From the NCBI GenBank assembly GCA_033345275.1, contig JAWPOF010000007.1, forward strand, positions 100,636 through 164,635: 64,000 nt of DNA, in the 5' to 3' direction. The notes under the pieces were generated by a model. It searched no databases, had not been told where the DNA came from, and worked only from the letters and a program-made list of their open reading frames with translations. Position numbers and translations under genes: made by a program. Every line of letters begins with the position of its first letter. Positions within the stretch are counted from its first letter, which is position 1. The stretch is from Alphaproteobacteria bacterium. GTDB taxonomy: Bacteria; Pseudomonadota; Alphaproteobacteria; Rs-D84. Positions 16,432-46,427 of the stretch are shown piece by piece.

Positions 16432-16439
16432 ATATTGCA

Positions 16440-27435: not shown

Positions 27436-27477
27436 ACGATTCCAGCCCCAACTGGGCGGGTTTCTTTATCCATACAA

Positions 27478-27512
27478 TCCTTTTTGACATCCTGTGAATT
27501 CGGTTTATACTG
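27478..27512 (+). promoter_or_regulatory. sigma70-like promoter (TTGACA-16-TATACT) overlapping an imperfect inverted repeat (gtgaatt..N..aattcac), candidate damage-inducible operator
   Basis: tttttgacatcctgtgaattcggtttatactgattcacgg; the whole ~85 bp is duplicated at 56405-56490 upstream of the degraded polymerase copy. Confidence 0.45.
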
Positions 27513-27521
27513 ATTCACGGA

Positions 27522-28784
27522 ATGGCGGAAAGGTTTTATCTTTGCATTGATTTAAAGAGTTTTTTTGCCTCGGTCGAAGCGGTTGACCGTGGGCTGGACC
27601 CATTTACAACAAACCTGGTGGTGGCGGACCCGTCACGGGGGCGGGGGTCGGTCTGTTTGGCGATAACGCCGGCGATGAAGGCGCTGGGGATTCGCAATCG
27701 TTGCCGGATCTTTGAAATCCCGCGTGGGGTCGAATACATCACCGCCATGCCCCGCATGAAAAAGTATATGGAGGTATCTGCCCAGATTTACGGTATTTAT
27801 CTGCGCTATATCTCGCCCGAAGACATCCATGTCTATTCCATTGACGAATGCTTTATCGATATCACGCCTTACTTGAAAATGTATAAACGGTCGCCCAAAG
27901 AAATGGCGATAATGCTGATGGATGCGGTGCGGGCCGAGACGGGAATATGCGCCACCGCCGGCATTGGTACGAACCTGTTCCTGGCCAAGGTTGCGCTGGA
28001 TATCACGGCCAAGAAAGTCCCCGACCATATCGGATACTTGGATGCGGAATCGTTCCGCCAGCACCTGTGGCATCATCGGCCAATAACGGACATCTGGAAC
28101 ATCGGTGCGGGAATTGCAAGGCGATTGGAAAAGTACGGTGTGTATGACCTGTATGGGGTGACGCAGATGCCACCCGAAACCCTGTACAAAGAATTCGGCA
28201 CAAATGCGGAATACCTGATTGATCATGCGAACGGCATCGAGCCGTGCACGATTGCCGACATTCACAATTATCAGGCGAAATCCCATTCCCTGTCCAACGG
28301 CCAGATTCTGTTTGAGGACTATAACTTTGATGATGCGATGATTGTGATGCAGGAAATGGTGGATAACCTGGTCTTGGAATTGGTGGAAAAGAACCTGGTG
28401 GCGGATGAAATATCACTGTCGGTGGGGTATTCACGTGATGTGCGACGCCCAACCGGGGGCAGTCGTAAATTGCCAGCGCACACATCGTCCTATAAATCAT
28501 TGGTGGCGGAGTTTATGCGATTGTATCGGGAAACAACGGACCGGCGCACGCCGATACATAAATTGACGGTGGGGCTGGGGAACCTGGTTGATGCGGATAC
28601 TGTGCATTTGCAACTGGATTTATTTGCAGACACAAGGGCGGATGAACGCGAAAGTAAACTGCAACATGCGCTGTTGGATATCAAGGGCAAGTTTGGCAAG
28701 AATGCCGTCCTGCGTGGCATAAATTATCACGAGAAATCCACAGGCCGCAAACGTAATACTTTGGTTGGGGGACATAATGGCTGA
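27522..28784 (+). CDS. Y-family DNA polymerase (UmuC/UvrX-like translesion polymerase)
   Basis: FYLCIDLKSFFASVE start, SIDECFID catalytic motif, little-finger domain; 420 aa. Confidence 0.8.
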   Translation: MAERFYLCIDLKSFFASVEAVDRGLDPFTTNLVVADPSRGRGSVCLAITPAMKALGIRNRCRIFEIPRGVEYITAMPRMKKYMEVSAQIYGIYLRYISPEDIHVYSIDECFIDITPYLKMYKRSPKEMAIMLMDAVRAETGICATAGIGTNLFLAKVALDITAKKVPDHIGYLDAESFRQHLWHHRPITDIWNIGAGIARRLEKYGVYDLYGVTQMPPETLYKEFGTNAEYLIDHANGIEPCTIADIHNYQAKSHSLSNGQILFEDYNFDDAMIVMQEMVDNLVLELVEKNLVADEISLSVGYSRDVRRPTGGSRKLPAHTSSYKSLVAEFMRLYRETTDRRTPIHKLTVGLGNLVDADTVHLQLDLFADTRADERESKLQHALLDIKGKFGKNAVLRGINYHEKSTGRKRNTLVGGHNG

Positions 28785-29106
28785 TAATACTGCACGTGCA
28801 AAACAGTTTATGCCATTCGCGGCCCTGCGTGGGTATTATGCGATGGTGCTGGCTAAAAATCGGGTGGTTGAGCCCAGGCGGGAGTTGATTGGCGATGCCG
28901 CCGAACGGTTATCTAAAAAGCTCGGGCTGGTTAAAAAAGGTATGATGATAACAGTGCGATTTTACCGGACCGATGCCTATGACACCATAACGGGCATGGT
29001 CACCCGTATAGACCCCGAATACCGATACATTACCATAGTCAAAACCAAAATCCCATTTGATGACATCGCCGACATATATGGCGCCGATATTGTAGATGTA
29101 GAGTAG
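28765..29106 (+). CDS. YolD-like accessory protein of UvrX-type polymerases
   Basis: 113 aa, overlaps the polymerase stop; FMPFAAL motif typical of the YolD family. Confidence 0.5.
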   Translation: MGDIMADNTARAKQFMPFAALRGYYAMVLAKNRVVEPRRELIGDAAERLSKKLGLVKKGMMITVRFYRTDAYDTITGMVTRIDPEYRYITIVKTKIPFDDIADIYGADIVDVE

Positions 29107-29122
29107 AGAGTGTGGTATTGGG

Positions 29123-29509
29123 CTAGGGAATTGGATCAAAGGAACCGATAATATCTCTCATGGGTAAAAAGACTCTTATGTTAAACCGTTTTTTGTAGCC
29201 AAAATTTTTCTCAAGTACCAACATAAGAGAACCACTATCTTCTACATTCGCTAGATGCAAAAGCTGCACTATATCTAGGAATTCTCCAACGGTTTTAATA
29301 TAGATGGTGGTGTCTTCTCTGACCCGGACTGGAATTTTTACCGCAGTCTCTAGTCCTGTAGATTTATTGATAGAATAGAATTCCGCAGTTTGCGTATCCT
29401 TATGGGCTTCAATGCGTAGTCTATTATATTTCGGGTGTAACCAAAACTTTTTAATTTTCTCAACCTCAAGAAGAAAATGCTTTGCATCAAATATGATTCT
29501 GTCATACAT
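29123..29509 (-). CDS. hypothetical protein (128 aa), last gene of the WYL-ARH operon
   Basis: ORF 11 nt downstream of the ARH gene on the same strand. Confidence 0.35.
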   Translation of the reverse strand: MYDRIIFDAKHFLLEVEKIKKFWLHPKYNRLRIEAHKDTQTAEFYSINKSTGLETAVKIPVRVREDTTIYIKTVGEFLDIVQLLHLANVEDSGSLMLVLEKNFGYKKRFNIRVFLPMRDIIGSFDPIP

Positions 29510-29519
29510 AGCCTACACC

Positions 29520-30302
29520 TTATTTGTTTTCAAATTCTTCTACAATCTCCAGCAAATCAGCAGGAATGTATTTTTTTGCCTGTTCTTTCAGCTCAGCAGG
29601 CACGCCATAATAAGCACCAGCAACTGCACCGGTTATGGCTGCGATGGTGTCCGAATCCCCACCGATGGAAATAGCGTTCCGGATTGCATCTTCATAGTCA
29701 GTGGATTCAAAGAAACACTGCAATGCCGGTGGAACAGTTCCCTGGCACGAAGAATCCCAATCATAGTCTGCTTGTAAATCTTCCAAACAATCGCACATGT
29801 CATAGTAGTTTTTTTCTATATACTCGGCTATCTCTTCCTTAGAGCAGCCATTGCGAGCCAAGAATATTGCAATAGCAACGGCTTCAGCACCCTTGATACC
29901 TTCAATATGGTCATGCGTTGGGGATGTAATCATATAGGACAGGCGTTTAACCTCTGCTACAGATGTGCCAAGCCAACCAGCAGCCGATACACGCATAGCG
30001 GCACCATTGCCCCAGCTATTGTATGGCCCCATGTCTGGATCACGCAACCACTGCCAGAACATTCCACCATACCCTTTGTCGGGGTAGCGATTGCCAACTA
30101 AACGCATGGATTCAGCAGCGATTTGCGACAAGTCGCCGCCTTTTTCTTTCCATTCTTTGATTGCGCTGGCCAAGGCTATGGTCATGCACGAGTCATCAGT
30201 GATGAACCCATTTTTCGCAAAGAAAGGGAATTTTTTGGAACGCAGGTTCCGGAATTCATAGATAGAACCAACAATATCACCAATAATCGCACCGTAAAGC
30301 AT
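29520..30302 (-). CDS. ADP-ribosylglycohydrolase family (ARH/DraG-like)
   Basis: MLYGAIIGDIVGS...DDS N-terminus and GGDSDTIAAITGA C-terminal metal-binding motif. Confidence 0.75.
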   Translation of the reverse strand: MLYGAIIGDIVGSIYEFRNLRSKKFPFFAKNGFITDDSCMTIALASAIKEWKEKGGDLSQIAAESMRLVGNRYPDKGYGGMFWQWLRDPDMGPYNSWGNGAAMRVSAAGWLGTSVAEVKRLSYMITSPTHDHIEGIKGAEAVAIAIFLARNGCSKEEIAEYIEKNYYDMCDCLEDLQADYDWDSSCQGTVPPALQCFFESTDYEDAIRNAISIGGDSDTIAAITGAVAGAYYGVPAELKEQAKKYIPADLLEIVEEFENK

Positions 30303-30380
30303 AACAGACTCCTTTTTGGGTAGTCTAGAACATCATGTCAGAATGTCAATTTGGAATAAGATGTTGCGACCAAAAATGAC

Positions 30381-31391
30381 TTATTTGCCGGATTGGCTGT
30401 TCAGAATAATGTCTTTCAGGATACCGTTATAGGTGGAAACCAGTTCCGCAGGGGCGATGGGCTTGATTTTACCACTCCACTGGAACAGATACCAAGACAT
30501 TTCCTTAAACCCATCCGCACGCATTTTGATTGTGACTGTACCATCAGAATTCTTGATAAATTGTTGGGTTGGGTGGAAAGTATAGCGCAAAACAGCATCT
30601 GCCACATCGGCATCCGCCAACCACTCAACATCATAAGGGCCGTTTTCAGAATGATACATGCCAAAAGATTCCATAGCATACTTTTTGATATCAAACTTGC
30701 CAGGGTTGAACCGTTTGTCGGTATTTTCAATATCAGACAATTGGCTAATGATATAGGTGCGAATATTCTTTTTATCGCTATTTTTATAGGCAACCAGGTA
30801 ATTATTGCTGTGACCATATAGGAACCCCAGTGGACAAACGGTATGACGTTCATTGCGACCATCACGATAATGGTAAGTCATATTTACCTTGGTAGAAGAC
30901 ATGACCGCATATTGCAGCATACCGACAACTTTATCATCGGTCTTGATATGTGGAAACGGCGCAGCGGTATTGGTGCGTGATAAAATCATACCTTCCAGAT
31001 CATTAAGTTCACGAATGGACTTTTTCATCTGCAAGATACGGTTCAATTTGTATTCCAGTGATTCCAGGTTGCGATGGATTTCTTCATTTTTAATGCGATT
31101 AACCGCAGCATTCAAGGCCAGCATATCACCACTGGAAATGTATTCTGGTGGCAGATCGTCTGGCATTTCAAGACGGAACCGGTGCTGTTTCGGATTGGCT
31201 GCATCGGGACTAACAACCAAGGCATCACCAAAACGTTCGGTTAGAAACTTGACAGTACGTTCGGCGGTTTTGCGACTGCACCCCATTGATTCCATGATTT
31301 CCTCATAGGTCATGCCAGCCATAGGCTTGCAAAACTGCTGAATCAAATCCAGCAACTCATTAAACTTACGATAGTCATCACGTACGGCCAT
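30381..31391 (-). CDS. WYL-domain transcriptional regulator (HTH-WYL-WCX; BrxR/CapW-like)
   Basis: N-terminal wHTH (YEEIMESMGCSRKTAERTVKFL), central WYL-like region (MTYHYRDGRNERHTVCPLGFLY...NYLVAYK), C-terminal extension. Start trimmed to the internal Met. Confidence 0.65.
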   Translation of the reverse strand: MAVRDDYRKFNELLDLIQQFCKPMAGMTYEEIMESMGCSRKTAERTVKFLTERFGDALVVSPDAANPKQHRFRLEMPDDLPPEYISSGDMLALNAAVNRIKNEEIHRNLESLEYKLNRILQMKKSIRELNDLEGMILSRTNTAAPFPHIKTDDKVVGMLQYAVMSSTKVNMTYHYRDGRNERHTVCPLGFLYGHSNNYLVAYKNSDKKNIRTYIISQLSDIENTDKRFNPGKFDIKKYAMESFGMYHSENGPYDVEWLADADVADAVLRYTFHPTQQFIKNSDGTVTIKMRADGFKEMSWYLFQWSGKIKPIAPAELVSTYNGILKDIILNSQSGK

Positions 31392-31534
31392 AATCAACCT
31401 CTTTGTTAAGAATAATTGTATCAGAAAAAACAATATAAAACAACCTAACTACGACACATTTGGTCGTATAATCTAGTTGTTGAATTGAACTTTGTTGTAG
31501 ATGTAATAAGATAAATGTAATCCAGGAGGCAAGT

Positions 31535-32548
31535 ATGATGAAACCAGAGTTCTTGAGATTTTTCAGCAAAAAGGTAAAAAGTGATCAGGCAAGATTAAAA
31601 GACAGAGCGGATTTGCTAGATTATGTGCTTCGTGACCAAAAGGTTCCTGGGCGCATCACGAATATAGAATCAGGTCCCTTGCTCGATTTATTCAATTTTG
31701 TTCCCGATGCAGGAGTAACCCCAAAAAAGATTTTTGATATTGTCATTGCGAACGATGGCAGTGCAAGGATTTTACCGCAAACAGGTGATGTACAAATATA
31801 TCTGCCCAAACAAGAACGCAAAACGCTCCTACTTGAAGATTTGTTAAAATCCAGTATTTTTAAGAAATGTCTTGCATTGCTACCAGTAGCTGTAGGAGTG
31901 GATGTTTCGGGTAAAACTTGTGTGTTGGATTTATCAGAAACTCGAAATATCTTGATAGATGGCAGATTAGGAACAGGTAAAACAAACTTGATCATTTCCA
32001 TGCTGATGTCTTTAGCAACCTGTAAAGATTCAACAGAAGTCACTTTCGTTGTTGTTGATACGATGAATGAATATAGTGTAATAGATGGATTGCCGCATTT
32101 ATCAAAACGAATAACAGATGATAATCATGTGGAAGAATTACAGAAAATCTTGGACCTTGTGAACGCCAGAACGTTGAATAGCGATATTTTGCACACCCCA
32201 ATGATACTGGTTATAGACAAGATTACGGATTTAACACCAGAATCACAGCAAGTGGTGCACCGCATATTGCAACAAGGACTATCTGTCGGTATTTACTGTA
32301 TCGCAACTGGAAACAAAACAGTTGAGTTGTCAGAAAACTTGCAGGCATGGTTTGACACCAGGGTTGTATTTAATCTGCCGGAATCCGAACTGCAACATAT
32401 TCTTGGTGCAGATGCAAATGCCTTGACATTGTTATCACATGGTGATGCAGTTTACAGTATAAGATCACAACAGCCAGAGCGTATACATACTCCTTATATA
32501 GCAGAATATATATTGGTCAGTATTGTGAACATGCTTGCAAAGAATTAG
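31535..32548 (+). CDS. FtsK/SpoIIIE-family P-loop ATPase (motor domain only; Walker B DE replaced by DK)
   Basis: ILIDGRLGTGKTNLIISMLMSL (Walker A), VTFVVVDTMNEYSVIDGLPHL (cf. FtsK [22 protein letters not shown]), PMILVIDKITDL, GIYCIATGNKT. Confidence 0.7.
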   Translation: MMKPEFLRFFSKKVKSDQARLKDRADLLDYVLRDQKVPGRITNIESGPLLDLFNFVPDAGVTPKKIFDIVIANDGSARILPQTGDVQIYLPKQERKTLLLEDLLKSSIFKKCLALLPVAVGVDVSGKTCVLDLSETRNILIDGRLGTGKTNLIISMLMSLATCKDSTEVTFVVVDTMNEYSVIDGLPHLSKRITDDNHVEELQKILDLVNARTLNSDILHTPMILVIDKITDLTPESQQVVHRILQQGLSVGIYCIATGNKTVELSENLQAWFDTRVVFNLPESELQHILGADANALTLLSHGDAVYSIRSQQPERIHTPYIAEYILVSIVNMLAKN

Positions 32549-32567
32549 ATTTATTTGTACAATTTAG

Positions 32568-33275
32568 ATGTGTGAGGTAGACATGTGTAATGTATTAAAA
32601 AAAATCCAGAAAGCTTTTAATAAATTGGAAAAAAGAGTTTTCGTATCCGAGGCGGATTTTCAGCACGCTTTTGCTATGAAATTGGAAAAACAATTCCCTA
32701 GCAAAGTACGATTGGAATATCCGATTAAAAAGCCAGAATATATCATGACAACCAAAGGGGAATATGTTTATGCCGATATTGTAATTAAAGATGGCGAAAA
32801 AAAATATGTAATCGAATTAAAATACAAGACACAAGCGATAAAAGATGTGCCTGATACGAAAGATGACGGTGGACTTGCCTGTAAACTATTAAAAAATCAG
32901 AGTGCTTATGATTTCGGGGCGTATGACTTTTGGGCAGACATCAACAGAACCGAACAGTTGGTTGCACAAAATGAGTATGATGGAGGCGTTTGTATATTTT
33001 TAACAAATGATTCAAATTATACAAGGTCGCATACAGGTACCATTTACTCAAATTTTTCTATGGAGGGTGGCAAGCATGATAAAGGCGAGAAACAATGGAT
33101 GGTAACGGATCGTTGTCCCGAACAAAGAATAGCAGAGATACAAAAAACTCGTCCCAATTTAAATATACAAAATGTATATAACTTTGAATGGCAAGACTTC
33201 CTGTCCGTTTCTGATGTGTCGGGTGGAAAATTTCAATATTTGTATATTGAAATTCAGCCTAAAGACAAGGCTTAA
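32568..33275 (+). CDS. hypothetical protein with PD-(D/E)xK nuclease-like motifs
   Basis: EADF...YADIVIKDGEKKYVIELKYK (D...ExK spacing). Confidence 0.4.
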   Translation: MCEVDMCNVLKKIQKAFNKLEKRVFVSEADFQHAFAMKLEKQFPSKVRLEYPIKKPEYIMTTKGEYVYADIVIKDGEKKYVIELKYKTQAIKDVPDTKDDGGLACKLLKNQSAYDFGAYDFWADINRTEQLVAQNEYDGGVCIFLTNDSNYTRSHTGTIYSNFSMEGGKHDKGEKQWMVTDRCPEQRIAEIQKTRPNLNIQNVYNFEWQDFLSVSDVSGGKFQYLYIEIQPKDKA

Positions 33276-33277
33276 AT

Positions 33278-33817
33278 TTATTTCGCCGCCCGTCTGATTT
33301 TGGATAATGTATCCATAATGGCTATATCTTTATGAGTGGCGTATACACGGTTAAATTCAGTACTTGTAATAACAGACAGGTTATAGTTTGTGTCATCTGT
33401 TTTTGGGGGTATAATATCAACCAGATTGGACAAGATAACTTTCATATTCTTTTTATTGGCAGCAATAAGCATAATCTGTGGAAAATGTTTTTCGTCAAGA
33501 ATCAATTCAATGTGCTTTTTTAAGTTTTCTTTATCCAGCAATATATTCTGATCGCTTAGTATAAAGATCTCATAATAGGGGTGAAAGATAGTTGCAGGAT
33601 ATATTTTTTCTCTTTCTGGCAATTTAACGCATTCTGTAACAGCAGAAAATTTCAAACCGCCAACATAGCAATCAGAACCAATAAGTGCATTCACTGTGTC
33701 GTAGAAAGCAATGGGGCTTATTGCATAAATTTTTTCAAGTTTAGACACATAGGTATTTTTTGACTCATCAAAATTTAAGGTCTTGCGCATACTATCCCTC
33801 TTTTTTGATGTAATCAT
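33278..33817 (-). CDS. hypothetical protein (179 aa), antisense-oriented inside the cluster
   Basis: ORF convergent with 32568-33275; no family recognised. Confidence 0.35.
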   Translation of the reverse strand: MITSKKRDSMRKTLNFDESKNTYVSKLEKIYAISPIAFYDTVNALIGSDCYVGGLKFSAVTECVKLPEREKIYPATIFHPYYEIFILSDQNILLDKENLKKHIELILDEKHFPQIMLIAANKKNMKVILSNLVDIIPPKTDDTNYNLSVITSTEFNRVYATHKDIAIMDTLSKIRRAAK

Positions 33818-33983
33818 ATAAAAAGCGTAAAAAATAGCAATTAAAAATAATCATATGCGACAGATTTGGACTTAGATAAATATACCGACTGGAAAGCCGA
33901 AAAATTATTGCTACGATAAAATCAAACAATAGGATTGCAAGCCCAAAATATAGTGGTAAGATTCCTAAAAAAGGAAAGAGAAG

Positions 33984-35447
33984 ATGTTCAAAATATCAAA
34001 ATCAGATTATGTATTAGGGGTAAAATGTCCAAACGCAATATGGTTCAAGAAATTGCGCAAGGATATCCAGACTGAAATGAACATGGCAATCCTGGAACGA
34101 GGAACTGCGATTGGTGAACTGGCACAGAAGAAATTCCCAGGTGGCACGATTATAACAGCCAAACCATGGGAATATGAGGCAGCATGGCGTACACAAGATG
34201 CCATTAAAGCCGATGATCCATATATCTACGAGGCAACATTATCCACCAAGACAGGCGAATACTGTGCGGTGGACATTCTTCGTAATAACAATGACGGCAC
34301 ATGGGATATCATAGAGGTAAAATCAACTTCCCACCCACACGAATATCACTACCTTGATGCTTCGTTCCAGAAATACGTATTCACACAATGTGGGGTCAAA
34401 ATACGTGATTGCTTTATCATGACCCTGAACCCAGAATACGTCAGACATGGTGCGCTGGATATTCAAGAACTATTTATGCTGCATAATGCAAATGAAGAAC
34501 TGCAGCCAATGGAACAAGTCGCAGCAGATGTGAAACGCATTCGTGCGGTGTTAGACGGCCCAGAATTGGGGATTGCAATATCTAAGGGCAAGTGCAACAA
34601 GTTCTATGACTGTCCATATCAGCATCATTGCTGGAAAGATGTACCAGCATTTTCAGTGTTTAATGTATTCCGTGGTGCGCTGGCAGATGAAATGTACGCA
34701 GCCTATGGGGCAGACCTAAAGAATGTGCCAGCAGAAGAACATTGCAGACAGATGAACAAGGGCGATATTGAGGCATATCTGAGCGGTAATGAGAATATAA
34801 ATAAAGATGTCTTACAGGAATTTACAGACCAACTGCAATGGCCACTGTATTTCTTAGACTATGAATCCATTCAGTCGGCTGTGCCAATATTTGATAATTC
34901 AAGGCCATATCAGCAGATTTGTTTCCAGTTTTCATTGCATGTGCAGCAGACCTCTGGGGGCGAACTGGAACACTACGAATACCTGCACAATGAATCCGGC
35001 ACAGATCCAAGACCAGGTTTGATAAAGAAACTGATAGAAACCATCGGGACCACTGGATCCGTTATCGTCTATAACCAGGGATTTGAACAAGGTCGCAATA
35101 CAGAAATGGCACGTGACTTTCCAGAATATGCAGACCAACTGTTGGCAATAAATGAAAGAATGATAGATCTGTTAAAGCCATTCAAGGAACGTGGCCTGTA
35201 TCGCCCATGCCAGAACGGCAGCGCATCAATCAAGCAGACACTACCAGCTTTTGTGCCGGAAATGTCGTACGAGAACCTGGGGATCCACAACGGAACCGAG
35301 GCCAGCGACCAGTTCATGAACTTTATGATTGGCAAACAAACACCGGCACAAACCGAAGAGATGATGCAGAACCTGCATGAATACTGCGGCCAAGACACCA
35401 TCGCAATGATAAAACTATTAGATGTGATACTAACCTATTGTAACTAA
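33984..35447 (+). CDS. DUF2779-type protein: N-terminal Cas4/RecB-like PD-(D/E)xK nuclease motif + C-terminal DnaQ-like 3'-5' exonuclease-like motifs
   Basis: DIIEVKS (ExK) in the N-terminal half; YFLDYES, HYEYLH and CGQDTIAM acidic motifs in the C-terminal half; 487 aa. Family name from memory. Confidence 0.55.
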   Translation: MFKISKSDYVLGVKCPNAIWFKKLRKDIQTEMNMAILERGTAIGELAQKKFPGGTIITAKPWEYEAAWRTQDAIKADDPYIYEATLSTKTGEYCAVDILRNNNDGTWDIIEVKSTSHPHEYHYLDASFQKYVFTQCGVKIRDCFIMTLNPEYVRHGALDIQELFMLHNANEELQPMEQVAADVKRIRAVLDGPELGIAISKGKCNKFYDCPYQHHCWKDVPAFSVFNVFRGALADEMYAAYGADLKNVPAEEHCRQMNKGDIEAYLSGNENINKDVLQEFTDQLQWPLYFLDYESIQSAVPIFDNSRPYQQICFQFSLHVQQTSGGELEHYEYLHNESGTDPRPGLIKKLIETIGTTGSVIVYNQGFEQGRNTEMARDFPEYADQLLAINERMIDLLKPFKERGLYRPCQNGSASIKQTLPAFVPEMSYENLGIHNGTEASDQFMNFMIGKQTPAQTEEMMQNLHEYCGQDTIAMIKLLDVILTYCN

Positions 35448-35458
35448 GAGATAACAAC

Positions 35459-37894
35459 ATGAGCATTAAACACTTCTCTGTAAATTTGGGAAATGCGGAA
35501 AACGGAACTCCAGTTATTAAGAACCTAAATGACTTGCGTTCAATTTATGTTGCAGGGGGTGGCGGCAAAAGCCGATTTTTAACAAGTTTTATCATCTCAT
35601 TGGTAGAAAATACACCAGCAGAAGAGATAAGTGTTGTAATGTGCAATCCTCGAAGAGCTGATTGGGACCTGTGTTGGGGCGATCTGCCACATGTGTCAAT
35701 TGCAGACAAAGAGCAAACATTAGATTGCCTCCAAAACATTGTCGCTGAAATTGAAAAAAGAAAGACTATGGGCGAGGATTTATTATACCTGCCAAAACGT
35801 TTTGTATTTATTGGTGATACCTATGATTTAATGAATAATGAAAAGAAACGCATTGTTGATTATATAAAGACAATAGCTACACAGGGACCAGACGTTGGGA
35901 TTTATTCATTGGTCACAGGATATCCCTGGATGATAGATAGTAACTATATAACACAGGATATTATAGACTGCTTCGATACTAAAATCCTATTCCAGGCCGA
36001 TGCCGGCAAGAATGATTATAAGATGTTGTTTGGTGACGAAGAATTTTCCAAAACACCCATTCCGACTGACGAAAAGAGAGGCGGTGATCTGCACGGAAAT
36101 GCAGCAATGATGGAAAAAAATGGCGATAAGACAAGGTTCATTATTAACTATGAAGATAAGAGAGATAATGCGAGGACGATATTTAAACTGTTTGGGGATT
36201 ATCATAAAAGCTATCAGTATGACCGGTTTGTAATGCAAAAAGCCGGATACCATATTCAAAGTATGGCCAGGAAACATAATCTGGAAACACCGAAAGATTT
36301 CACATTTATAAAGACAGAAAGATTGTATCCTGCATTTGACGATATGAATTTCAGATATAAAAACAAGATGTTCTCGATATTGTTTGATGTTATTCTGAAT
36401 GGCAAATCAAAACTGGAGGAATACAGAAAATATAAGCACATTCATATGGCGAAGAATAATAATATGATTCCCGTTGTATTCCCCATATTGGTAGATTTTC
36501 CTATGGAACATGGACCACATGGATATGGAATTTATGTTGGCCCAGACAGAAGAGTCAAAACAACATATAATGTGAAAGACAAGGATAGTTGGAATCTGTT
36601 TGATGCAGAAACAGGCGAACCTATTGACCCATTGGCGATAGCTGATGATGCGGCAGTAAAAATGTCCAGATATGAACAGGAAAACTTTGCCGTTCAAATA
36701 GCGTGCAACCTTATAAAGGAAAAAGGCGGCGGTCTGATACAGGTATCAGACAATGCAAGTCATATACCACAAATTGTATTTAGGACCAATACAGGACAGC
36801 TTCAATGGTGTGCGGTTTCTGTAACAGATGAAGACTGGGATGAAACCAAAGGTTCATGGTTAGGGGACAGTCAATCAATAATAGATGGTAATCGTTACAT
36901 AAGTAAGGTCATGACAGAAGAAAACGGTATGTTTCTTCATGTTTACATAGAGAATTCAGAAAGGGGCGGAAAGATTCATTACAAGTACAAATCAATCGAT
37001 GTACCCAGAGGAGTAAAGTGGAATAATCTACTCAGAAATGAATATACAAAGTGGCAAAATTTGGTGACTGGTGCGGATGAATCAGAAATGGGCTACACAT
37101 ACGTGGATGTAATTACAGCAAAAGAAACTGTAACATTCAAAATGCTGGAACCTCAAACAGACGAACAATCTGCAAGAGGGTTATCCCAGTTCAATCAAAT
37201 ACTCGAAAAAACTGGAATGATATATTTTTCCACCAATCCTAGGGAACCAGGACATCCGTGTTTTCAAGCAAATATGAACACGGCAAACACAAAGTTCCCA
37301 GTTGACTTCCTGTTTATAGATTGGTGTGGCAACATAATTCAGATAGATAAGAATGTTCCAGCTCTGTCATCAGAAATACACACCGCATCTAATGTAGTGG
37401 CAGTGATGGAAATCAATGCTGGCGAATGTGACAAGTATGGCATAGAGGTTGGCGATAGCGTAATACATGAAAAACTGCGCATACGACCTGGGAATAAAGT
37501 CCTCTATAAAGAGATGATGTTTGATAAGCTCACAGAGAGAACCCTGGACAGGATTAACCCAGAAGACATCATGTTCTTTGCGATTGCCGAGGGCGGCGCA
37601 ATGGGCTGGGCTGGTGCTATCCAGATTATAACCAAGAACAAGGACGGTATAGGTCTGTATTTTATCGACTACACAACATTCAAGGATTTAACAAGTATAG
37701 AGAAATTATTCCCACCGGTTAAATGGGTTGAAACCAACACAGTTGGCAACAAAGACTGGTTTATGAAGCCGATGGGTTTTGGGAATCATCTCATACTGAG
37801 AACAGAGTATTATGAAGAATTCAATGATTTGATTAAGGGGAAACATGTCTATAAGGAATGGCTAAATGTAGCAATAGAAATACTTTCAGAATAA
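35459..37894 (+). CDS. large FtsK/SpoIIIE-like protein: degenerate motor domain (aa 30-230) + about 570-aa extension of unknown function
   Basis: YVAGGGGKSRFL (Walker A), ISVVMCNPRRADWDL..LPHV, RFVFIGDTYDLM (Walker B with DT instead of DE), GIYSLVTGYP. Confidence 0.55.
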   Translation: MSIKHFSVNLGNAENGTPVIKNLNDLRSIYVAGGGGKSRFLTSFIISLVENTPAEEISVVMCNPRRADWDLCWGDLPHVSIADKEQTLDCLQNIVAEIEKRKTMGEDLLYLPKRFVFIGDTYDLMNNEKKRIVDYIKTIATQGPDVGIYSLVTGYPWMIDSNYITQDIIDCFDTKILFQADAGKNDYKMLFGDEEFSKTPIPTDEKRGGDLHGNAAMMEKNGDKTRFIINYEDKRDNARTIFKLFGDYHKSYQYDRFVMQKAGYHIQSMARKHNLETPKDFTFIKTERLYPAFDDMNFRYKNKMFSILFDVILNGKSKLEEYRKYKHIHMAKNNNMIPVVFPILVDFPMEHGPHGYGIYVGPDRRVKTTYNVKDKDSWNLFDAETGEPIDPLAIADDAAVKMSRYEQENFAVQIACNLIKEKGGGLIQVSDNASHIPQIVFRTNTGQLQWCAVSVTDEDWDETKGSWLGDSQSIIDGNRYISKVMTEENGMFLHVYIENSERGGKIHYKYKSIDVPRGVKWNNLLRNEYTKWQNLVTGADESEMGYTYVDVITAKETVTFKMLEPQTDEQSARGLSQFNQILEKTGMIYFSTNPREPGHPCFQANMNTANTKFPVDFLFIDWCGNIIQIDKNVPALSSEIHTASNVVAVMEINAGECDKYGIEVGDSVIHEKLRIRPGNKVLYKEMMFDKLTERTLDRINPEDIMFFAIAEGGAMGWAGAIQIITKNKDGIGLYFIDYTTFKDLTSIEKLFPPVKWVETNTVGNKDWFMKPMGFGNHLILRTEYYEEFNDLIKGKHVYKEWLNVAIEILSE

Positions 37895-37917
37895 AACGCA
37901 GAACAAAGGAGGTAGCA

Positions 37918-39018
37918 ATGAATGTGATAATGAAAGGCAAAGAATGGCTAAAAACAGGAAATAACTCGCTATGGGTTGCTACGGCAGTAATGATAGCAAT
38001 TGGGACGATTGCGATTTATCTGCTGGCTCCATTTCAGGATGTGCGCATAGGATTACCACAGGGCTTTTTGTTCGGACGATATCTGCCATATCTGATATTT
38101 GGAATCATAATGATGGTTGGATGCAGCAAGATGTCCAAGAAATTCATGATCAAGTTCAGCTACATACTGGGGGCGTTTGGATGTTTCTTAATGCTGATTA
38201 CCATGGTTGAACCACACATAATTCGTGGTGCAGCTCGATACGTTCCTCTGTTTGGTGTTGTGAACATTGATCCTTTTATGATGACTTTGCCAGCATACAT
38301 TGTACTGATGTCCAACTGGCTGAGCAAAGAAACAACCAAGGAGAAGAAATTCAGGATATGGTTAGGATGCTCTGCAATAACAGTTTTTATCATGTTTACT
38401 GCGATCATGGCCCCATATATGATAATTGCAGCAGCCTATGCCTTGGTATTCCTTGTAATGTCGATACAAACGCGCAAGAATATGCCTATGGCATTCTACA
38501 CATCAATTGCGCTGGGGTTGGGATTGGTAGCAGCTTTTTCATATAGTGTACTAACAAATAGCTATATGCATGCCAGATTGGAACACATTATGTATGGCAC
38601 CAGCTACACAGTTCAGGCAGCAAAGGCAGTTATACATTCCAGCAGTTTGATAGGTTCAAACCCAGAATCAATCCAGGCCCTGACAAACCTGCCAGATGTC
38701 CCAACTGACTTTATGTTTGCCGGTATCGTGGGTAAGATGGGGTATTTGATGGGGGCTTTGGTCCTTATGCTGTACATATGGGCATCGACATCAATATACA
38801 GAACCACACAAAACGCAAGCCAGTTTAGAAAGCTGTTGGGTGCTGGTGTCCTTACCGTGTTTATTTTCGGATTCTTCGGGAACATGGACACATCGATTGG
38901 GGGATTACAACACGCAAGCTACCTGCCATTTATGTCATGCAGCTGGAATGCGCTGCTGTCATTTTGCATCATGTTTGGCTTCCTGTTGGGTCAGAAGGTA
39001 GATGGTTCAAAAGTATAG
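37918..39018 (+). CDS. divergent SEDS-family (FtsW/RodA/SpoVE)-like polytopic membrane protein
   Basis: About 10 TM segments; C-terminal block LPDVPTDFMFAGIVGKMGYLMG...ASQFRKLLGAGVL...NMDTSIGGLQHASYLPFMSCSW aligns to the FtsW block [21 protein letters not shown]...LPTKGLTLPLISYGGSS. RGAARYVPLFGV..IDPFMM aligns to the GAKRWI..G..IQPSEF block. Confidence 0.5.
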   Translation: MNVIMKGKEWLKTGNNSLWVATAVMIAIGTIAIYLLAPFQDVRIGLPQGFLFGRYLPYLIFGIIMMVGCSKMSKKFMIKFSYILGAFGCFLMLITMVEPHIIRGAARYVPLFGVVNIDPFMMTLPAYIVLMSNWLSKETTKEKKFRIWLGCSAITVFIMFTAIMAPYMIIAAAYALVFLVMSIQTRKNMPMAFYTSIALGLGLVAAFSYSVLTNSYMHARLEHIMYGTSYTVQAAKAVIHSSSLIGSNPESIQALTNLPDVPTDFMFAGIVGKMGYLMGALVLMLYIWASTSIYRTTQNASQFRKLLGAGVLTVFIFGFFGNMDTSIGGLQHASYLPFMSCSWNALLSFCIMFGFLLGQKVDGSKV

Positions 39019-39183
39019 GTGCGCTTTTGTTACGCTATTGAAAAAAGAGGATTAAATTACTATAATAATCTAAAGTGAGGATATAAAATGGTGCAATCTA
39101 TTGAAATTAATCCGAATTTATCTGGTTTTTTGTCATCGTTTAGAGAAAAAAGTTGGAATTAGTATGTGATAAATCGTACTATG

Positions 39184-39197: not shown

Positions 39198-39295
39198 CAA
39201 AAATCAAACGCCCGATATGGGCGTTTTATTTTTGTGCCGAAATAAGGGGCTCCCCCAACAAGCCACGATAGTGGTGGGGGGCAAAGAGTAGGTCT

Positions 39296-42021: not shown

Positions 42022-43233
42022 ATGGGTTCTAGCGTACGTTTTATAAATCGTATAACAAACGACTTTCCTATGTTATCAAGGAATGTCAATGGAACAAGAC
42101 TTGTTTATCTAGATAGTGCAGCGACCTCATTAAAACCGAATAAAGTCATATCCAAAATCAATAATTTTTATAATTCCAGTACATCAAATGTGTATCGTGG
42201 GACCTCTGTTTTATCAGAAGAAACAACATTGGAGTTTAACGAAGTTAGATGCAAAGTAGCAGATTTTATTGGTGCAAATCATCAAGAAGTAATATTTACA
42301 TCTGGTGCCACAGATTCTATAAATAAATTAAGTTTGATGCTTGGTTTGAAAGAAAATGATGTTGTTTTGACTACGTTGTTGGAACATCATTCCAATTTTT
42401 TACCGTGGCAATGTCGGGCAAAAACGAAAATAATCAAGCTTGATATAAATGGAAATATTGATATCGATAATCTGGAACGGGCGATAGATGCGAATACAAA
42501 ATTGGTTGCTTTCAGTTTTGCTTCTAATGTAACAGGGAATATACAGGATGTTCGTAAAATTGTAGAAGTGTGTAAAAAACATTCCGTTTTATCATTGGTG
42601 GACGCAACTCAGGTCGCAGGACACATAAGTTTTAATGTCAAAGACATCGATTGTGATTTTCTTGTTTTTTCGGCTCATAAAATGTTAGGACCCTCAGGTG
42701 TTGGGGTTTTATATGTTCACAACAGAAATTTTCCCAACTTATTGCCGGCCTTCTATGGGGGTGGTATGGTGGATAAAATAACTGGTTCCGAAGTTAAATA
42801 CAAAGTTCCGCCATTTTGTTTTGAGTCAGGAACCCCAAACATAGAAGGGGTCTTGGGTTTTGGGGGGGCAATAGATTATATCAATGAAATAGGTTTACAC
42901 AATGTACATAAATATCTGGAAGAAATTGATAGTTATCTAATTTCTCAAATTCAAACATTGCCCAAAATTATTCTGCCGTTTAAGATATCAAAAACGCATC
43001 TGCCGAATTTAACGTTTTGTTTGAAAAACACTGGTGTTGACATTGGGTATTTAGCTAGGGTACTGTCGGATACTTATGGTATAGTGTTAAATACGGGCTA
43101 TCAGTGTTGTCAACCATTATATAACAATTACGGCATAAATGGAGGAATACGGGTTTCCTGTTATTTGTATAATACAAAGCAAGACATAGACTGTTTAATA
43201 AATGCGTTAAAAGATTTGGAGTTTATGCTATGA
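42022..43233 (+). CDS. cysteine desulfurase-like PLP enzyme (aminotransferase class V, SufS/CsdA-like)
   Basis: SAHKMLGPSGVGVLYV PLP-lysine motif and GYQCCQPL catalytic-cysteine loop (cf. SufS GHHCAQPL). Confidence 0.7.
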   Translation: MGSSVRFINRITNDFPMLSRNVNGTRLVYLDSAATSLKPNKVISKINNFYNSSTSNVYRGTSVLSEETTLEFNEVRCKVADFIGANHQEVIFTSGATDSINKLSLMLGLKENDVVLTTLLEHHSNFLPWQCRAKTKIIKLDINGNIDIDNLERAIDANTKLVAFSFASNVTGNIQDVRKIVEVCKKHSVLSLVDATQVAGHISFNVKDIDCDFLVFSAHKMLGPSGVGVLYVHNRNFPNLLPAFYGGGMVDKITGSEVKYKVPPFCFESGTPNIEGVLGFGGAIDYINEIGLHNVHKYLEEIDSYLISQIQTLPKIILPFKISKTHLPNLTFCLKNTGVDIGYLARVLSDTYGIVLNTGYQCCQPLYNNYGINGGIRVSCYLYNTKQDIDCLINALKDLEFML

Positions 43234-44126
43234 TAAAAAATAGGCTAATTAATATAGAGTCTTCTTCTTTTTGTAATGCGAATTGCGCCATGTGTCCGCG
43301 TGATGTGATAAAAGAAAAAGGACATATGAGTCCTGCTATGGCTAGCATTATTGCACAAAAAATAAAAGATGTTCCCAACATATACGAAGTTTCTATTTCA
43401 GGCAGGGGAGAACCGAGTCTGAACCCAAATATTGAAAAGCTGCTAGAAATTTTCTCTTCCCTGCCTAACTTGGCATTGGTTACAACAGGGACTCGTGTTA
43501 ATGATAGTATATTAGAAGCTTTAAATAAATACGTATCTAAATTGCGACTGTCCATCAGTTCCCTGGCCCCAGACATTTTTCAAAAAGTGCACACAACGTT
43601 GGATTATAACAAAGTGTGGGGCAATATTGAAAATATTATTCAAACTTATGACAAGAATAAGATAGTTATTCATCTTGTTGGTGGGCCGGTGATTTATCCG
43701 GGGTTGGAACAGACGATAGCGTTCTTCAAAGAACGTGGTGTTGATAATATTAAACTGTTCCCGTTATGGAACAGGGGGGGCAGCAAATCCCAGAACTCTG
43801 AACAGCTTCTGCGTTATAGTTTAATAGATAAGTATGGATTAATTGCGCCAGAAAGCGACTATTTGTCAAAAAGCGAACTAGAAAGCATTCAAAACAAGCC
43901 TGATTTTTGTCCCGTTGGTGATTCCAGTTTGTGCATAAATTTCAAAGGGGAAATAGTTGGCTGCTTCCAAGATTTTGCCTATGATAATATTGTTGGAAAA
44001 ATTACTGATGATACACTGGATATAAACAATCTGTTATTAACCAGAAGGGCTATTTTAGGCAAAATGAATGTTTGCAAAAAATGTAATTCATTTCGTGAAT
44101 TGGTAGGTAAAAATGCTCAGCGATAA
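43230..44126 (+). CDS. radical SAM enzyme with C-terminal SPASM/twitch-like Cys cluster
   Basis: CNANCAMC (Cx3Cx2C), GRGEPSL, and C-terminal CPVGDSSLC...GC...CKKC. Confidence 0.7.
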   Translation: MIKNRLINIESSSFCNANCAMCPRDVIKEKGHMSPAMASIIAQKIKDVPNIYEVSISGRGEPSLNPNIEKLLEIFSSLPNLALVTTGTRVNDSILEALNKYVSKLRLSISSLAPDIFQKVHTTLDYNKVWGNIENIIQTYDKNKIVIHLVGGPVIYPGLEQTIAFFKERGVDNIKLFPLWNRGGSKSQNSEQLLRYSLIDKYGLIAPESDYLSKSELESIQNKPDFCPVGDSSLCINFKGEIVGCFQDFAYDNIVGKITDDTLDINNLLLTRRAILGKMNVCKKCNSFRELVGKNAQR

Positions 44127-45456
44127 TGATGTAAAGCAAGAATTACATAGGCTGTTTTTGTCCGTCCCTGCTACGAACCTACATAATGTCGGAATAGAAA
44201 TAGAGCTATCCATTGTAAGCAAAGAAGAAGACTATTCCGGCGATCATAGTCATGACCTGCAAAATTTTATAATAAATCATCTAAACTTTATACAGCTCTT
44301 TCCTGATAAACTAATATTTAGACACAAGACAGAAAAAGATATTATTTCCTTTGAATACAGTATCAATACCCTAGAGTTTTCAATGGAAAAATCCGATAGT
44401 TTAATGAAGATCAAAAAACGTTTTTTGGGTTATTATGATGCACTGCAAAATTTCATGAAAACTAAAAATCTTATGTTGTGCGGTTGTGGTTTGCATCCGC
44501 ATTGGCAAAAAATAAATACGCGAGCATTGGAATTGCCACATTATCAATTGACAGAGTATTATTTAGCACAGGGGGCTAAGGAATCGTATTTGCATAATCA
44601 TGATGATTTTTGTGCGTATTCATGTGCAGTACAAACACACATTGATATAAATCATAGTATTCCAGAACTTTTAAACATATATTCATTTTTAGGTTGTATC
44701 AAAGGATTCCTGTTTTCAAATTCTGTTGACCTGACCCAAACATGTGACTTCCAAGGAATGGCATGCGTCAGGGACTATTTATGGTGGCACAGCATGTTTG
44801 CGTTTTGTTCAGAGAATGTTGGCTATTATCACGATATAAAAACAAATGATGATATTATCGACAATATGTTGCAACGCAGTATGTATTATGTTTGTCGCGA
44901 TAATGAATACCTATATATTGGACCGTACAAACTTGCTGAATACTTTTCTAAAGACAGCGTGCTTGCATATAATATATTTACAGGCAATAAAACAACATTG
45001 TCGCCACAGATTACAGATTTACAGTATTTTCGTTCATACAAGGCAATAGAACTAACAAAGCGTCATACCATAGAAATCCGTGATGATTGTCAACAGCCTG
45101 TTTATGATACCTTTGGTCCATGTGCATTTAATCTTGGTATATCAGAGGCTCTGCCCGAAGCATACTCTTTGATAGACAAACTTTGTAAAGATATGAGAAT
45201 AGATTTCTATAATTTTATAAACAATCGTAGGTTGTCAACGTCTCTTAACCCAATGCTAAGTGAGTTTGTCCTAGATAAGTGGCGTATTTATTGCAGAGAA
45301 TTTGTCTTGATTGCACGTAAGGGGTTGCAGAAAAGAAATCTGGGTGAAGAAGAATTATTAGATAGTGTTTTGAAACGACACGACATCTTAGAAAACCCTG
45401 CAAAAGTCGCGTACAAAAAATGGCACTGTGATAATGTGTTACTTGGTATAGATTAA
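44113..45456 (+). CDS. carboxylate-amine ligase, glutamate-cysteine ligase family 2 (GCS2/YbdK-like)
   Basis: VGIEIELSIV N-terminal motif; about 450 aa; overlaps the rSAM stop. Confidence 0.5.
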   Translation: MLSDNDVKQELHRLFLSVPATNLHNVGIEIELSIVSKEEDYSGDHSHDLQNFIINHLNFIQLFPDKLIFRHKTEKDIISFEYSINTLEFSMEKSDSLMKIKKRFLGYYDALQNFMKTKNLMLCGCGLHPHWQKINTRALELPHYQLTEYYLAQGAKESYLHNHDDFCAYSCAVQTHIDINHSIPELLNIYSFLGCIKGFLFSNSVDLTQTCDFQGMACVRDYLWWHSMFAFCSENVGYYHDIKTNDDIIDNMLQRSMYYVCRDNEYLYIGPYKLAEYFSKDSVLAYNIFTGNKTTLSPQITDLQYFRSYKAIELTKRHTIEIRDDCQQPVYDTFGPCAFNLGISEALPEAYSLIDKLCKDMRIDFYNFINNRRLSTSLNPMLSEFVLDKWRIYCREFVLIARKGLQKRNLGEEELLDSVLKRHDILENPAKVAYKKWHCDNVLLGID

Positions 45457-45475
45457 CAGAAAAAAGGAAAATCTT

Positions 45476-46411: not shown

Positions 46412-46427
46412 AACAAGGAGGGAACAT

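Follow-up and report, generated by a model that had tools for sequence, protein, structure and literature searches.

The 64,000-nucleotide stretch of DNA analyzed here (hereafter the window; GenBank assembly GCA_033345275.1, contig JAWPOF010000007.1, positions 100,636 to 164,635 of the forward strand) carries at 29.1-39.1 kb a gene cluster that we tentatively read, at somewhat less than an even chance, as a regulon on a mosaic island, in which a DriD-type WYL-domain transcription factor would couple DNA processing, triggered by single-stranded DNA (ssDNA), to a septal cell-wall arm. The best-supported part of this reading is its regulatory layer, where a DriD-type factor and three copies of its predicted binding site, termed boxes below, together imply that the cluster would be induced by ssDNA. 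The locus under study comprised positions 31392-39018 and was extended to 29.1-39.1 kb; every open reading frame (ORF) listed in a preliminary description of this DNA was recovered at the same position. Protein families were assigned by profile searches against Pfam, NCBIfam, PHROGs and PADLOC-DB v2, by phmmer and profile searches of the PDB, and by Foldseek searches with structural models, the Pfam and NCBIfam scans taking in the larger ORFs of 21.9-39.0 kb. About 35 related metagenomic loci, denoted by numbers with the prefix L, were compared with the window.

The regulator (30381-31391, reverse strand) is a protein of 336 amino acids (aa), in which Pfam recognizes the WYL domain (9e-09), the WCX domain (3.8e-05) and a helix-turn-helix. 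Its ORF can be extended to a TTG at 31433, the likely start being the ATG at 31391 with its AAGAGG ribosome-binding site. When searched with phmmer against all PDB sequences, it retrieves solely constructs of Caulobacter crescentus DriD (8TP8/8TPK, 9PFQ/9PFV/9PGA, 9CU3, 7TZV and 7U02), with an E-value of 3e-33 over residues 7-317; at E<=10 no other chain, and thus none of BrxR or CapW, is matched. The PDB contains structures of both BrxR and CapW. The preliminary description had placed the regulator in the BrxR/CapW type; this identity is rejected because the PDB matches are confined to DriD, and PADLOC detects no BREX or CBASS component. Instead, both the architecture (a winged helix-turn-helix or wHTH, a helical bundle, WYL and WCX) and the similarity over the full length place the protein with DriD, as does its recognition helix, which reads R-K-T-A-E-R where DriD has R36-R37-T38-A39-E40-R41 (numbering of PMC10853764). 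DriD, once activated by ssDNA, turns on the transcription of a DNA-damage response that does not depend on SOS; its consensus site is ATACGAC(N7)GTCGTAT, and 68 of 69 alphaproteobacterial DriD homologs carry a CGNC(N7)GNCG motif in their own promoter (PMC10853764).

To locate such sites we used a position-weight matrix trained on 16 sites from these loci, counting only sites outside the training set as independent. Across both strands of the window (128 kb) the matrix yields three hits of at least 17 bits, all in promoter regions of this locus. The first, box 1 (31448-31471, forward strand; cTACGAC-ACATTTG-GTCGTAT as read at 31449-31469), scores highest of all sites in the window (29.7), agrees with the DriD consensus (PMC10853764), AT-rich spacer included, and, as in the DriD homologs, lies in the regulator's own bidirectional promoter, here shared by the WYL gene and the first FtsK-like gene. 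It is kept in all nine of the orthologous WYL-upstream regions extracted, while the rest of the spacers diverges. Its inverted repeat ACGAC-N7-GTCGT (31451-31467) overlaps a TATAAT hexamer (31467-31472). The agreement with the DriD site bears out the WYL operator proposed in the preliminary description. Box 2 (33854-33877, forward strand; core 33858-33872, CGACAGATTTGGACT; score 22.0) occupies the divergent promoter between an antisense gene, p179, and the gene for a DUF2779 protein, and L005, L008, L014 and L040 have equivalent, non-training boxes ahead of their DUF2779 genes. Box 3 (30362-30385, reverse strand; core 30367-30381, which reads CGACCAAAAATGACT on the forward strand), itself outside the training set, scores 17.2, the third best of the 128 kb; it overlaps the WYL stop codon upstream of a leftward arm and recurs at the equal position in L005, L008, L013, L020 and L040.

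In L005, L008, L013 and L040, all three corresponding positions hold non-training sites, and another such site lies upstream of the FtsK-like arm in L020, those of L017 and L021 being training-set sites. A looser pattern, CGNC-N7-GNCG with one mismatch allowed, was discarded as evidence, for it is unspecific (57 hits in the window); hence, only the matrix and the positional conservation carry weight. The near-perfect box in the divergent promoter, the two further boxes and the conserved positions in sister loci strongly indicate the control by the WYL protein that the preliminary description had predicted.

Viewed through these boxes, the tight six-gene cluster of the preliminary description is not a single operon. 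The interval 29.1-39.0 kb has the look of a single regulon, in which at least two rightward units (31535-33275 and 33984-39018), with the antisense p179 between them, are accompanied by a leftward one, making at least three transcription units besides p179. The first rightward unit holds an FtsK-like protein with an altered Walker B motif and a PD-(D/E)xK protein; the second holds the DUF2779 protein, an 811-aa fusion protein and a divergent member of the SEDS family. The leftward unit, which the earlier gene set had left out and which box 3 assigns to the same regulon, consists of an ADP-ribosylglycohydrolase (ARH; 29520-30302, reverse strand) and p128. The former is DraG/Tri1-like (Pfam ADP_ribosyl_GH, 2.1e-37; partial DraG and Tri1 matches in NCBIfam) and adjoins the WYL gene in L003, L005, L013, L017, L020, L034 and L040, with an ARH-Macro fusion in L013 as well. 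The latter (29123-29509, reverse strand; 128 aa), the last gene of this arm, matches nothing in Pfam, NCBIfam, PHROGs or PADLOC, and its orthologs adjoin the ARH or WYL genes in L003, L005, L008, L020 and L040.

The DUF2779 protein (33984-35447, forward strand; Pfam PF11074, 1.2e-46) is the most conserved component of the module, with 62-92% identity across loci whose content otherwise differs. It is predicted to combine an N-terminal Cas4-like PD-(D/E)xK nuclease bearing a Cys cluster (the Cas_Cas4 match of 0.0039 falls below the cut-off) with a C-terminal DnaQ-like 3'-5' exonuclease, in line with the domain assignments for the family (PMC3985635, PMC13621843). The residues of both are invariant, namely C15, D97, E111-x-K113 and the Cys cluster in the Cas4-like part and D292-x-E294 and H465...D471 in the DnaQ-like part, which agrees with the two-nuclease architecture originally noted. 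A second, plausible PD-(D/E)xK nuclease is the 235-aa protein encoded at 32568-33275 (forward strand). The motif on which the preliminary call was based, E28...D70...E83-x-K85, is invariant in four orthologs that are 46-97% identical, and profile searches of Pfam, NCBIfam, PHROGs, PADLOC and the PDB return no match, so that the assignment stands on the motif.

Between the two rightward units lies p179, a 179-aa ORF on the reverse strand (33278-33817) whose likely product is 170 aa long, starting from 33790. It had been listed as of unknown family, and indeed nothing is matched in Pfam, NCBIfam, PHROGs, PADLOC, PDB profile searches or an exhaustive HMMER search, with only seven representatives among 1.84e9 proteins. 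In all eight loci aligned it runs opposite to an adjoining DUF2779 gene or FtsK-like arm; a 168-aa gene occupies a similar place in L040.

The 337-aa FtsK-like protein (31535-32548, forward strand; Pfam FtsK_SpoIIIE, 3.9e-15) aligns over residues 20-324 with the alpha+beta motor of Pseudomonas aeruginosa FtsK (2IUU, E 4e-20). It has no transmembrane (TM) segment, its sole hydropathy hit being a core beta-strand. TM-less FtsK paralogs are known, for example SftA of Bacillus. Pfam finds no FtsK_gamma domain in it or in the longer L005 ortholog, where a resemblance noted by eye was dropped for want of Pfam support. The Walker A motif GTGKT is intact; the Walker B motif has become D-K (LVIDKITDL as against VVVDEFADM) and ATQRPS has become ATGNKT, losing the Arg that serves as arginine finger. 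The alignment bears out the replacement of the Walker B Glu by Lys that had first been described. Given the D-K substitution and the lost QR of ATQRPS, the protein is predicted to bind ATP without hydrolyzing it. The D-K substitution is conserved in orthologs of 91-92% identity in L008 and L014 and also in the L005 protein L005-384, which makes it a stable feature rather than decay. We accordingly distinguish a type A, with VIDK and ATGNKT (the window, L008, L014 and L005-384), from a type B, with canonical GCGKS, VIDE and GTQR (L040, L020, L021, L022 and L005-259), two members of which have Pfam E-values down to 5e-39.

The 811-aa protein (35459-37894, forward strand) contains the second FtsK-like core of the preliminary description, with the Walker B variant DT (IGDT) and with K, C or T at the P-loop Lys position among homologs (Pfam 2.7e-4; PHROG 6.7e-15; Foldseek to the FtsK motor 6T8B, 1e-11). 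Its extension, then described as unknown, is not wholly so: the degenerate FtsK-beta-like region (1-230) is followed by a domain X (about 260-485), by DUF192 (566-668), on which a literature search was uninformative, and by a C-terminal part. Domain X has a restriction-endonuclease fold in which the ExK strand is replaced by Q-I-V; this fold comes from a cropped model, the full-length AlphaFold model being poor (predicted local distance difference test score 58) and recovering the FtsK-like domain only. The full-length family comprises three clusters in 5.8e9 proteins, and the central domain eight further clusters. Its parts also occur as separate genes beside DUF2779, domain X in L017-L020 and DUF192 in L023 and L025, and such fusions and adjacencies link FtsK-like, restriction-endonuclease-fold, DUF192 and DUF2779 components. 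Thus both window proteins align with the FtsK alpha+beta motor and neither retains the Walker B Asp-Glu pair. Since the window holds only a type A protein and a fusion with a pseudo-P-loop, translocation powered by ATP is improbable in this version of the locus.

The last gene of the operon (37918-39018, forward strand) encodes a divergent FtsW/RodA-type SEDS protein (Pfam PF01098, 2.5e-19). The preliminary description had recognized both the family and its altered QPSE and GGSS motifs; the length given, 386 aa, belongs to a longer ORF from 37858, the protein itself having 366 aa. The fold is full-length, covering profile positions 4-348 of 356 with at least eight hydrophobic segments, and a profile search aligns P. 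aeruginosa FtsW (8BH1, 1.8e-12) and 6BAR over the full length, whereas single-sequence phmmer finds no SEDS protein in the PDB. Against the NCBIfam FtsW model it scores 82.8 bits, the cut-off being 337.5. QPSE is replaced by DPFM and GGSS by SWNA, so that it departs from the QPSE(x)xK and GGSS signature. However, in the segment NLPDVPTDFMF an Asp that at least 90% of the clade shares aligns with D275 in extracellular loop 4 of P. aeruginosa FtsW, the putative catalytic Asp of that enzyme (PMC7614612); 39 alignment columns are invariant, many of them loop residues. The catalytic Asp and the invariant loop residues indicate that the protein is under selection.

The SEDS clade is discrete (about 20 clusters) and almost confined to these neighborhoods, where its gene is always the last, 4-31 nt after six different upstream genes. 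In L002 and L020 the gene immediately upstream of SEDS encodes a penicillin-binding protein (PBP): that of L002 is TM-anchored and has SIHK, SCN and KTA in place of KTG, and that of L020 is a lipoprotein with SVFK, SCN and KTG and is apparently active. On the short contig L016, a PBP gene directly follows DUF2779, and the catalytic Ser is replaced by Gly. As a separate observation, the solitary SEDS gene of L009-L012 has ahead of it (L009, 9860-9883) a box variant that is still symmetric but altered at the two outer positions, TGAC-AATTTTG-GTCA; this hints at a co-varying regulator, none being encoded within the fetched 10 kb.

The related loci show that the recurrent core is WYL plus DUF2779 and that the other genes are exchangeable modules, the samples that could be identified coming from ruminant gut (a 96%-identical 811-aa gene occurs in one metagenome-assembled genome labeled Alphaproteobacteria from water-buffalo colon, a label in keeping with the DriD similarity and with a host that is probably an alphaproteobacterium). 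FtsK-like genes, the 170-aa antisense gene and the SEDS clade join this core frequently, and a class B PBP occasionally: FtsK-like genes stand beside DUF2779 in about 12 loci, and SEDS is present in about 9 of about 20 informative ones. The WYL-DUF2779 linkage itself is seen in about 11 loci of rumen type and extends to distant pairs (30-32% and 42-73% identity; L024, L031); it is found as well on a plasmid of Aliarcobacter, in which genes for WYL, DUF2779 and PD-(D/E)xK proteins adjoin one another. To our knowledge, this linkage has not been reported before.

The gene set proposed in the preliminary description does recur, L005 having all six genes and one extra FtsK-like gene, but it is not a fixed unit. 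L008 is without the 811-aa gene; in L014, Cas9-Cas1 after DUF2779 takes the place of SEDS and the 811-aa gene; WYL, a 651-aa DUF2779 protein, a vWA-like protein and SEDS are found in L013 and L040; and L002 has an 820-aa protein, an FtsK-like gene, a class B PBP and SEDS. In L020, WYL stands beside a series comprising a domain-X protein, DUF2779, p179 (on the opposite strand), DUF6998, FtsK-like, a gene for about 100 aa (corresponding to a beta-flower protein in L040), a TM protein, PBP and SEDS.

How the modules are exchanged is seen most directly against L040. Window positions 27445-31467 are 95.5% identical to it, with UmuC, a 109-aa gene, p128, ARH and WYL in the same order; 33858-35433 are 85% identical; and 37902-39148 are 96.5% identical to L040 9985-11231. 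No relation is left between the two sequences outside these blocks, in the intervals that separate them; one such interval opens within box 1 and closes at box 2, and the other runs from the end of DUF2779 to a point shortly before the SEDS start. Box 1 is likewise the breakpoint relative to L013, and box 2 is exactly where homology to both loci restarts. The neighbors are of two kinds. Repair-type genes include UmuC/YolD (the window and L040), a uracil-DNA glycosylase and a UvrD-like helicase (L040), and DprA (L005 and L017). Defense-type genes of the related loci include type IIG, ISP, MmeI and DpnII restriction-modification, Cas9-Cas1, an OLD-family nuclease, AIPR, a MotA/OmpA pair, SNF2 with PLD, and HATPase_c_3.

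Several of these neighbors are worth recording in their own right. In L014 (4240-8420), directly downstream of a DUF2779 gene 92% identical to that of the window, are a compact Cas9 (961 aa, HNH and RuvC_III), Cas1 and a 109-aa gene that is probably cas2; a Cas4-like nuclease thus adjoins a type II system without a cas4 of its own. Beside the SEDS end of L013 (15422-17265) lie a MotA/ExbB-like and OmpA-like pair, an SNF2 helicase and DUF8245/HNH, of Zorya-like flavor, the corresponding genes of L040 (11171-13680) being a MORC-like HATPase_c_3 gene and a 354-aa gene. A DUF2130 protein of about 400-430 aa recurs beside DUF2779 or the island SEDS (L006 6655-8511; L009 11245-13101; L035 4877-6076; L042 1111-2397), preceded by a 184-aa partner in L006 and L009, and is found on the Aliarcobacter plasmid about 4.6 kb from DUF2779, beside an OLD-type endonuclease; it looks like another uncharacterized recurrent module of these islands.

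We propose that these components could work together as follows. ssDNA produced by DNA damage, or by foreign DNA as it replicates or enters, would bind the WYL domain, by analogy with DriD, and the ssDNA-bound regulator would switch on all three promoters. In the DNA arm, the TM-less, predicted non-hydrolyzing FtsK-like proteins would form DNA-encircling or DNA-binding scaffolds and present DNA ends or branches to the DUF2779 and 235-aa PD-(D/E)xK nucleases, the restriction-endonuclease-fold domains taking part in this arm as well. In the envelope arm, the FtsW-like SEDS protein, with the class B PBP in sister loci, would engage the septal peptidoglycan machinery and hold or re-route division during DNA processing, a role such as DidA plays in the Caulobacter DriD regulon, while the ADP-ribosylglycohydrolase would reverse ADP-ribosylation damage. 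The high turnover of cassettes and the defense-island setting suggest that selection is exerted by foreign DNA or toxins no less than by endogenous damage. Conversely, the DriD regulon parallel, the repair genes nearby and the position of FtsK upstream of FtsWI in Caulobacter (PMC10683668) favor a damage-response or checkpoint role, which fits at least as well as phage defense.

A number of points weigh against the proposed ssDNA-triggered regulon. On the regulatory side, boxes 2 and 3 both depart from CGNC-N7-GNCG at one position, and the placement of box 1 over TATAAT would fit repression of the rightward promoter and not DriD-style activation, the DriD box of Caulobacter lying at the -35 position of activated promoters (PMC13004042). 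On the envelope side, the SEDS protein, lacking the Glu of QPSE and the GGSS motif, may be inactive; there is no PBP partner in the window; and its role as a division modulator is speculation. The canonical type B FtsK-like ATPase of sister loci is also missing from the window, so that what the window carries, with neither it nor a PBP, may be a pared-down or partly disabled form. More generally, gene content is so variable that neighboring modules may each be a system of its own under a common regulator, and we infer the ligand, the sign of regulation and the activities of all the proteins.

The strongest rival overlaps with the proposed regulon in that ssDNA is the trigger in both. It casts the locus as an anti-phage or anti-plasmid 'HerA/FtsK capture' defense, in which FtsK-like rings would feed invading double-stranded DNA to the DUF2779 and PD-(D/E)xK nucleases, the WYL factor would de-repress or activate the operons on infection, and SEDS would be a membrane anchor at the site of DNA entry or an abortive-infection effector acting on the cell wall. 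We regard this as a real possibility, if a less probable one. The frequent defense-island neighbors of the related loci, the swapping of modules at gene boundaries and the extreme rarity and fast evolution of the families all speak for it. So does the combination of FtsK/HerA proteins with active and inactive restriction-endonuclease domains, which is a predicted defense theme (PMC10853773), and CapW, another WYL regulator, is also reported to sense ssDNA and to control immune operons (PMC11662680).

As the preliminary description had stated, the gene set corresponds to no named defense or conjugation system. PADLOC-DB v2 matches no system model, returning the WYL protein and weak single-domain hits only (mad8 6.5e-14, SspH 8e-09 and Cas4 3.5e-4, with the FtsK-like protein matching mad8, SspH and DndH) and leaving three of seven proteins without a match. 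The matches of the FtsK-like protein lend the defense interpretation some support, and the lack of any beyond weak single domains counts against it. So do the regulator's proximity to the DNA-damage activator DriD rather than to BrxR/CapW and the loss of catalytic residues from both window FtsK-like proteins, which makes active pumping unlikely. Our literature search found no SEDS or PBP component in any described defense system, nor do we know of one. Further, DUF2779 is quasi-essential in a minimal Mycoplasma, which suggests that it could have a housekeeping role in nucleic-acid metabolism (PMC13621843).

A bolder variant, which we hold to be rather unlikely, would have the ssDNA sensor switch on decoy or alternative paralogs of the late divisome enzymes (the non-hydrolyzing FtsK, the FtsW-like SEDS and, in sister loci, the FtsI-like PBP) together with nucleases, so that a mobile island arrests or re-routes septation and processes DNA. 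If true, this would amount to a full-size protein-mimicry version of the SidA/DidA checkpoint, or to a new principle of abortive defense acting through septal cell-wall synthesis.

It is less likely still that unrelated or decaying cargo genes have simply come to share an island, as in a patchwork, with SEDS and the FtsK-like proteins being degenerate paralogs that have no joint function. Degenerate motifs are indeed abundant (the Walker B D-K, the variable P-loop Lys, the lost QPSE and GGSS, the lost Ser of the L016 PBP), gene content varies, and there are remnants such as a HATPase_c_3 start and a duplicated 5' fragment of umuC, both described below. Yet the degenerate features are themselves conserved, as witnessed by VIDK at 91-92% identity and the 39 invariant SEDS columns; all ORFs are intact, with tight spacing in six different arrangements; a box precedes each unit in many loci; and domain fusions link the components.

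Regarding transfer, no relaxase, VirB4, VirD4, WXG100, EssA/B or EsaA was found by Pfam and NCBIfam among the larger ORFs of 21.9-39.0 kb, clt-type repeats not having been searched for. A TraB-like conjugation module for double-stranded DNA or a type VII/EssC-like secretion module on an integrative element, the former entertained in the preliminary description, is therefore rejected as very improbable: despite the weak NCBIfam and Foldseek similarity of the FtsK-like proteins to EssC, EccC and TcpA, the large serine recombinase and DUF2924 genes 6 kb upstream and the help that peptidoglycan-remodeling genes could give to transfer, there are no partner genes, the EssC/EccC scores are far below the cut-offs, the FtsK-like proteins are degenerate and without TM segments, the related loci adjoin restriction-modification and CRISPR genes rather than transfer genes, and no viral or phage homologs were found. 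A phage or viral origin was rejected as well, since scans of viral contigs with the 811-aa and DUF2779 alignments gave no relatives; among GenBank phages, tblastn detected neither SEDS nor DUF2779, its only hits being weak ones to FtsK domains of Bacillus phages.

The flanks of the cluster help to delimit the island. On its left, a UmuC-like Y-family polymerase (27522-28784; Pfam IMS 2.5e-28 and IMS_C) and a YolD-like protein (28765-29106; Pfam YolD), both on the forward strand, form a conserved flank of the island arm; none of the boxes found lies upstream of them, and regulon membership is not indicated. On its right, a strong promoter-like site (39038-39066) precedes the first approximately 20 codons of a HATPase_c_3 gene (39088-39148, forward strand), recognized by its match to L040, where the gene for the 482-aa protein is intact and starts at 11171; this remnant marks the right edge of the shared island sequence. 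A bidirectional intrinsic-terminator-like hairpin (39206-39226; a 9-bp stem with five GC pairs and T-runs on both strands) then closes the right arm, between the island and a convergent valyl-tRNA synthetase gene. The exact ends of the island and att sites were not found.

Elsewhere in the window, a tRNA-Ser(GGA) (22314-22404) is followed by an LMBR1-like membrane ORF (22847-23917), by a 529-aa large serine recombinase (23912-25501, reverse strand), whose stop overlaps the end of that ORF, and by a DUF2924 gene; the stretch 22314-25928 may be the left end of an integrated element. At 56411-56585 (forward strand), a second umuC promoter with the first approximately 41 codons, truncated (MAERFYLCIDLKSFFASVEAVERGL...), is 93% identical over 175 bp to 27471-27645 and looks like the remnant of another island or of a recombination event. 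A tight co-directional series at 42022-48351 encodes a class V aminotransferase/cysteine desulfurase-like protein, a radical SAM protein with SPASM, an unknown protein of 447 aa, a RimK-type ATP-grasp protein, a peptidase C26 (gamma-glutamyl hydrolase-like) and an unknown protein of 427 aa; it could be a pathway for peptide modification, of the kind that makes ribosomally synthesized and post-translationally modified peptides, or for a small molecule. Finally, a further acquired island may lie at about 8000-17000, a region of low GC content (0.32-0.37 as against about 0.42 in its flanks) that ends at a tRNA-Glu (17095-17170) and holds small unknown ORFs besides genes for GNAT acetyltransferases and an ABC-F-type ATPase.

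Returning to the regulon, WYL/DriD regulation, FtsK/HerA-nuclease conflict modules and DUF2779 are each of a kind already known; what is new, so far as the searchable literature shows, is their combination, the linkage of WYL to DUF2779 and, above all, a dedicated SEDS protein, with or without a PBP, in such a regulon. If our reading is true, the DriD paradigm would extend from a chromosomal repair circuit of Caulobacter to mobile, reshuffled islands of gut bacteria, and the large DUF2779 family would gain a context as a WYL-controlled nuclease with FtsK-like partners. It would also provide the first SEDS/PBP pair in a damage-response or defense module, and with it a direct link from DNA surveillance to the synthesis of septal peptidoglycan. 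The FtsK-like proteins, conserved although catalytically 'dead', would offer a test case for non-motor roles of FtsK rings, within the practical limits set by uncultured hosts and very rare families.

With BrxR and CapW the regulator shares domain architecture, divergent placement by the controlled operon and a defense-island setting, and CapW is also reported to sense ssDNA (PMC11662680, PMC9122601). However, neither offers a similar solved structure at E<=10, no BREX or CBASS genes are present here, and both are repressors, whereas the nearest relative of our regulator is an activator. The HerA/FtsK capture systems (PMC10853773, PMC12839542) share the association of an FtsK/HerA P-loop protein with an active nuclease, an apparently inactive restriction-endonuclease fold and DNA-binding modules in mobile and defense neighborhoods, and the weak PADLOC matches to SspH, DndH and mad8 point in the same direction. 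In contrast to those systems, there is no Orc/Cdc6, D5-helicase, PglZ or Dnd/Ssp partner here, the ATPase is FtsK proper (alpha+beta) and catalytically degenerate rather than HerA-like, and DUF2779, DUF192, SEDS and PBP are not among their components. The DUF2779/UU173 family (PMC3985635, PMC13621843) clearly includes our protein, with both nuclease motif sets intact; its members are solo proteins without a characterized function, whereas here the linkage to WYL is recurrent.

In another direction, the co-occurrence of an FtsK motor, a SEDS protein with the catalytic Asp and a class B-type transpeptidase with SxxK, SxN and KTG (L020) recalls the FtsK-FtsW-FtsI core of the late divisome. Unlike the latter, the components here are island-encoded and lineage-restricted, with degenerate Walker B, arginine-finger, QPSE and GGSS motifs, and are surrounded by a damage-type regulator and nucleases rather than by FtsQLB or FtsN partners.

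A close parallel is the DriD regulon of Caulobacter, which comprises the nucleases bapE and recJ, the division inhibitor didA, acting on FtsN/FtsW/FtsI, and the operon divergent from driD (PMC13004042, PMC9186387). The payloads differ, with didA, bapE, recJ and dnaG on the one side and DUF2779, FtsK-like, SEDS and ARH genes on the other; the Caulobacter genes are scattered in the chromosome, whereas these are clustered on a mosaic island; DriD is an activator, whereas box 1 overlaps a -10-like hexamer; and the small inhibitor peptide of Caulobacter would have its counterpart here in a full-size FtsW paralog. What the two have in common is a regulator alike over its full length (E 3e-33) and in its wHTH-WYL-WCX architecture, a near-identical palindromic box in the bidirectional promoter that also serves the regulator's own gene (PMC10853764, PMC13004042), and the combination of nucleases with a factor directed at the late divisome.

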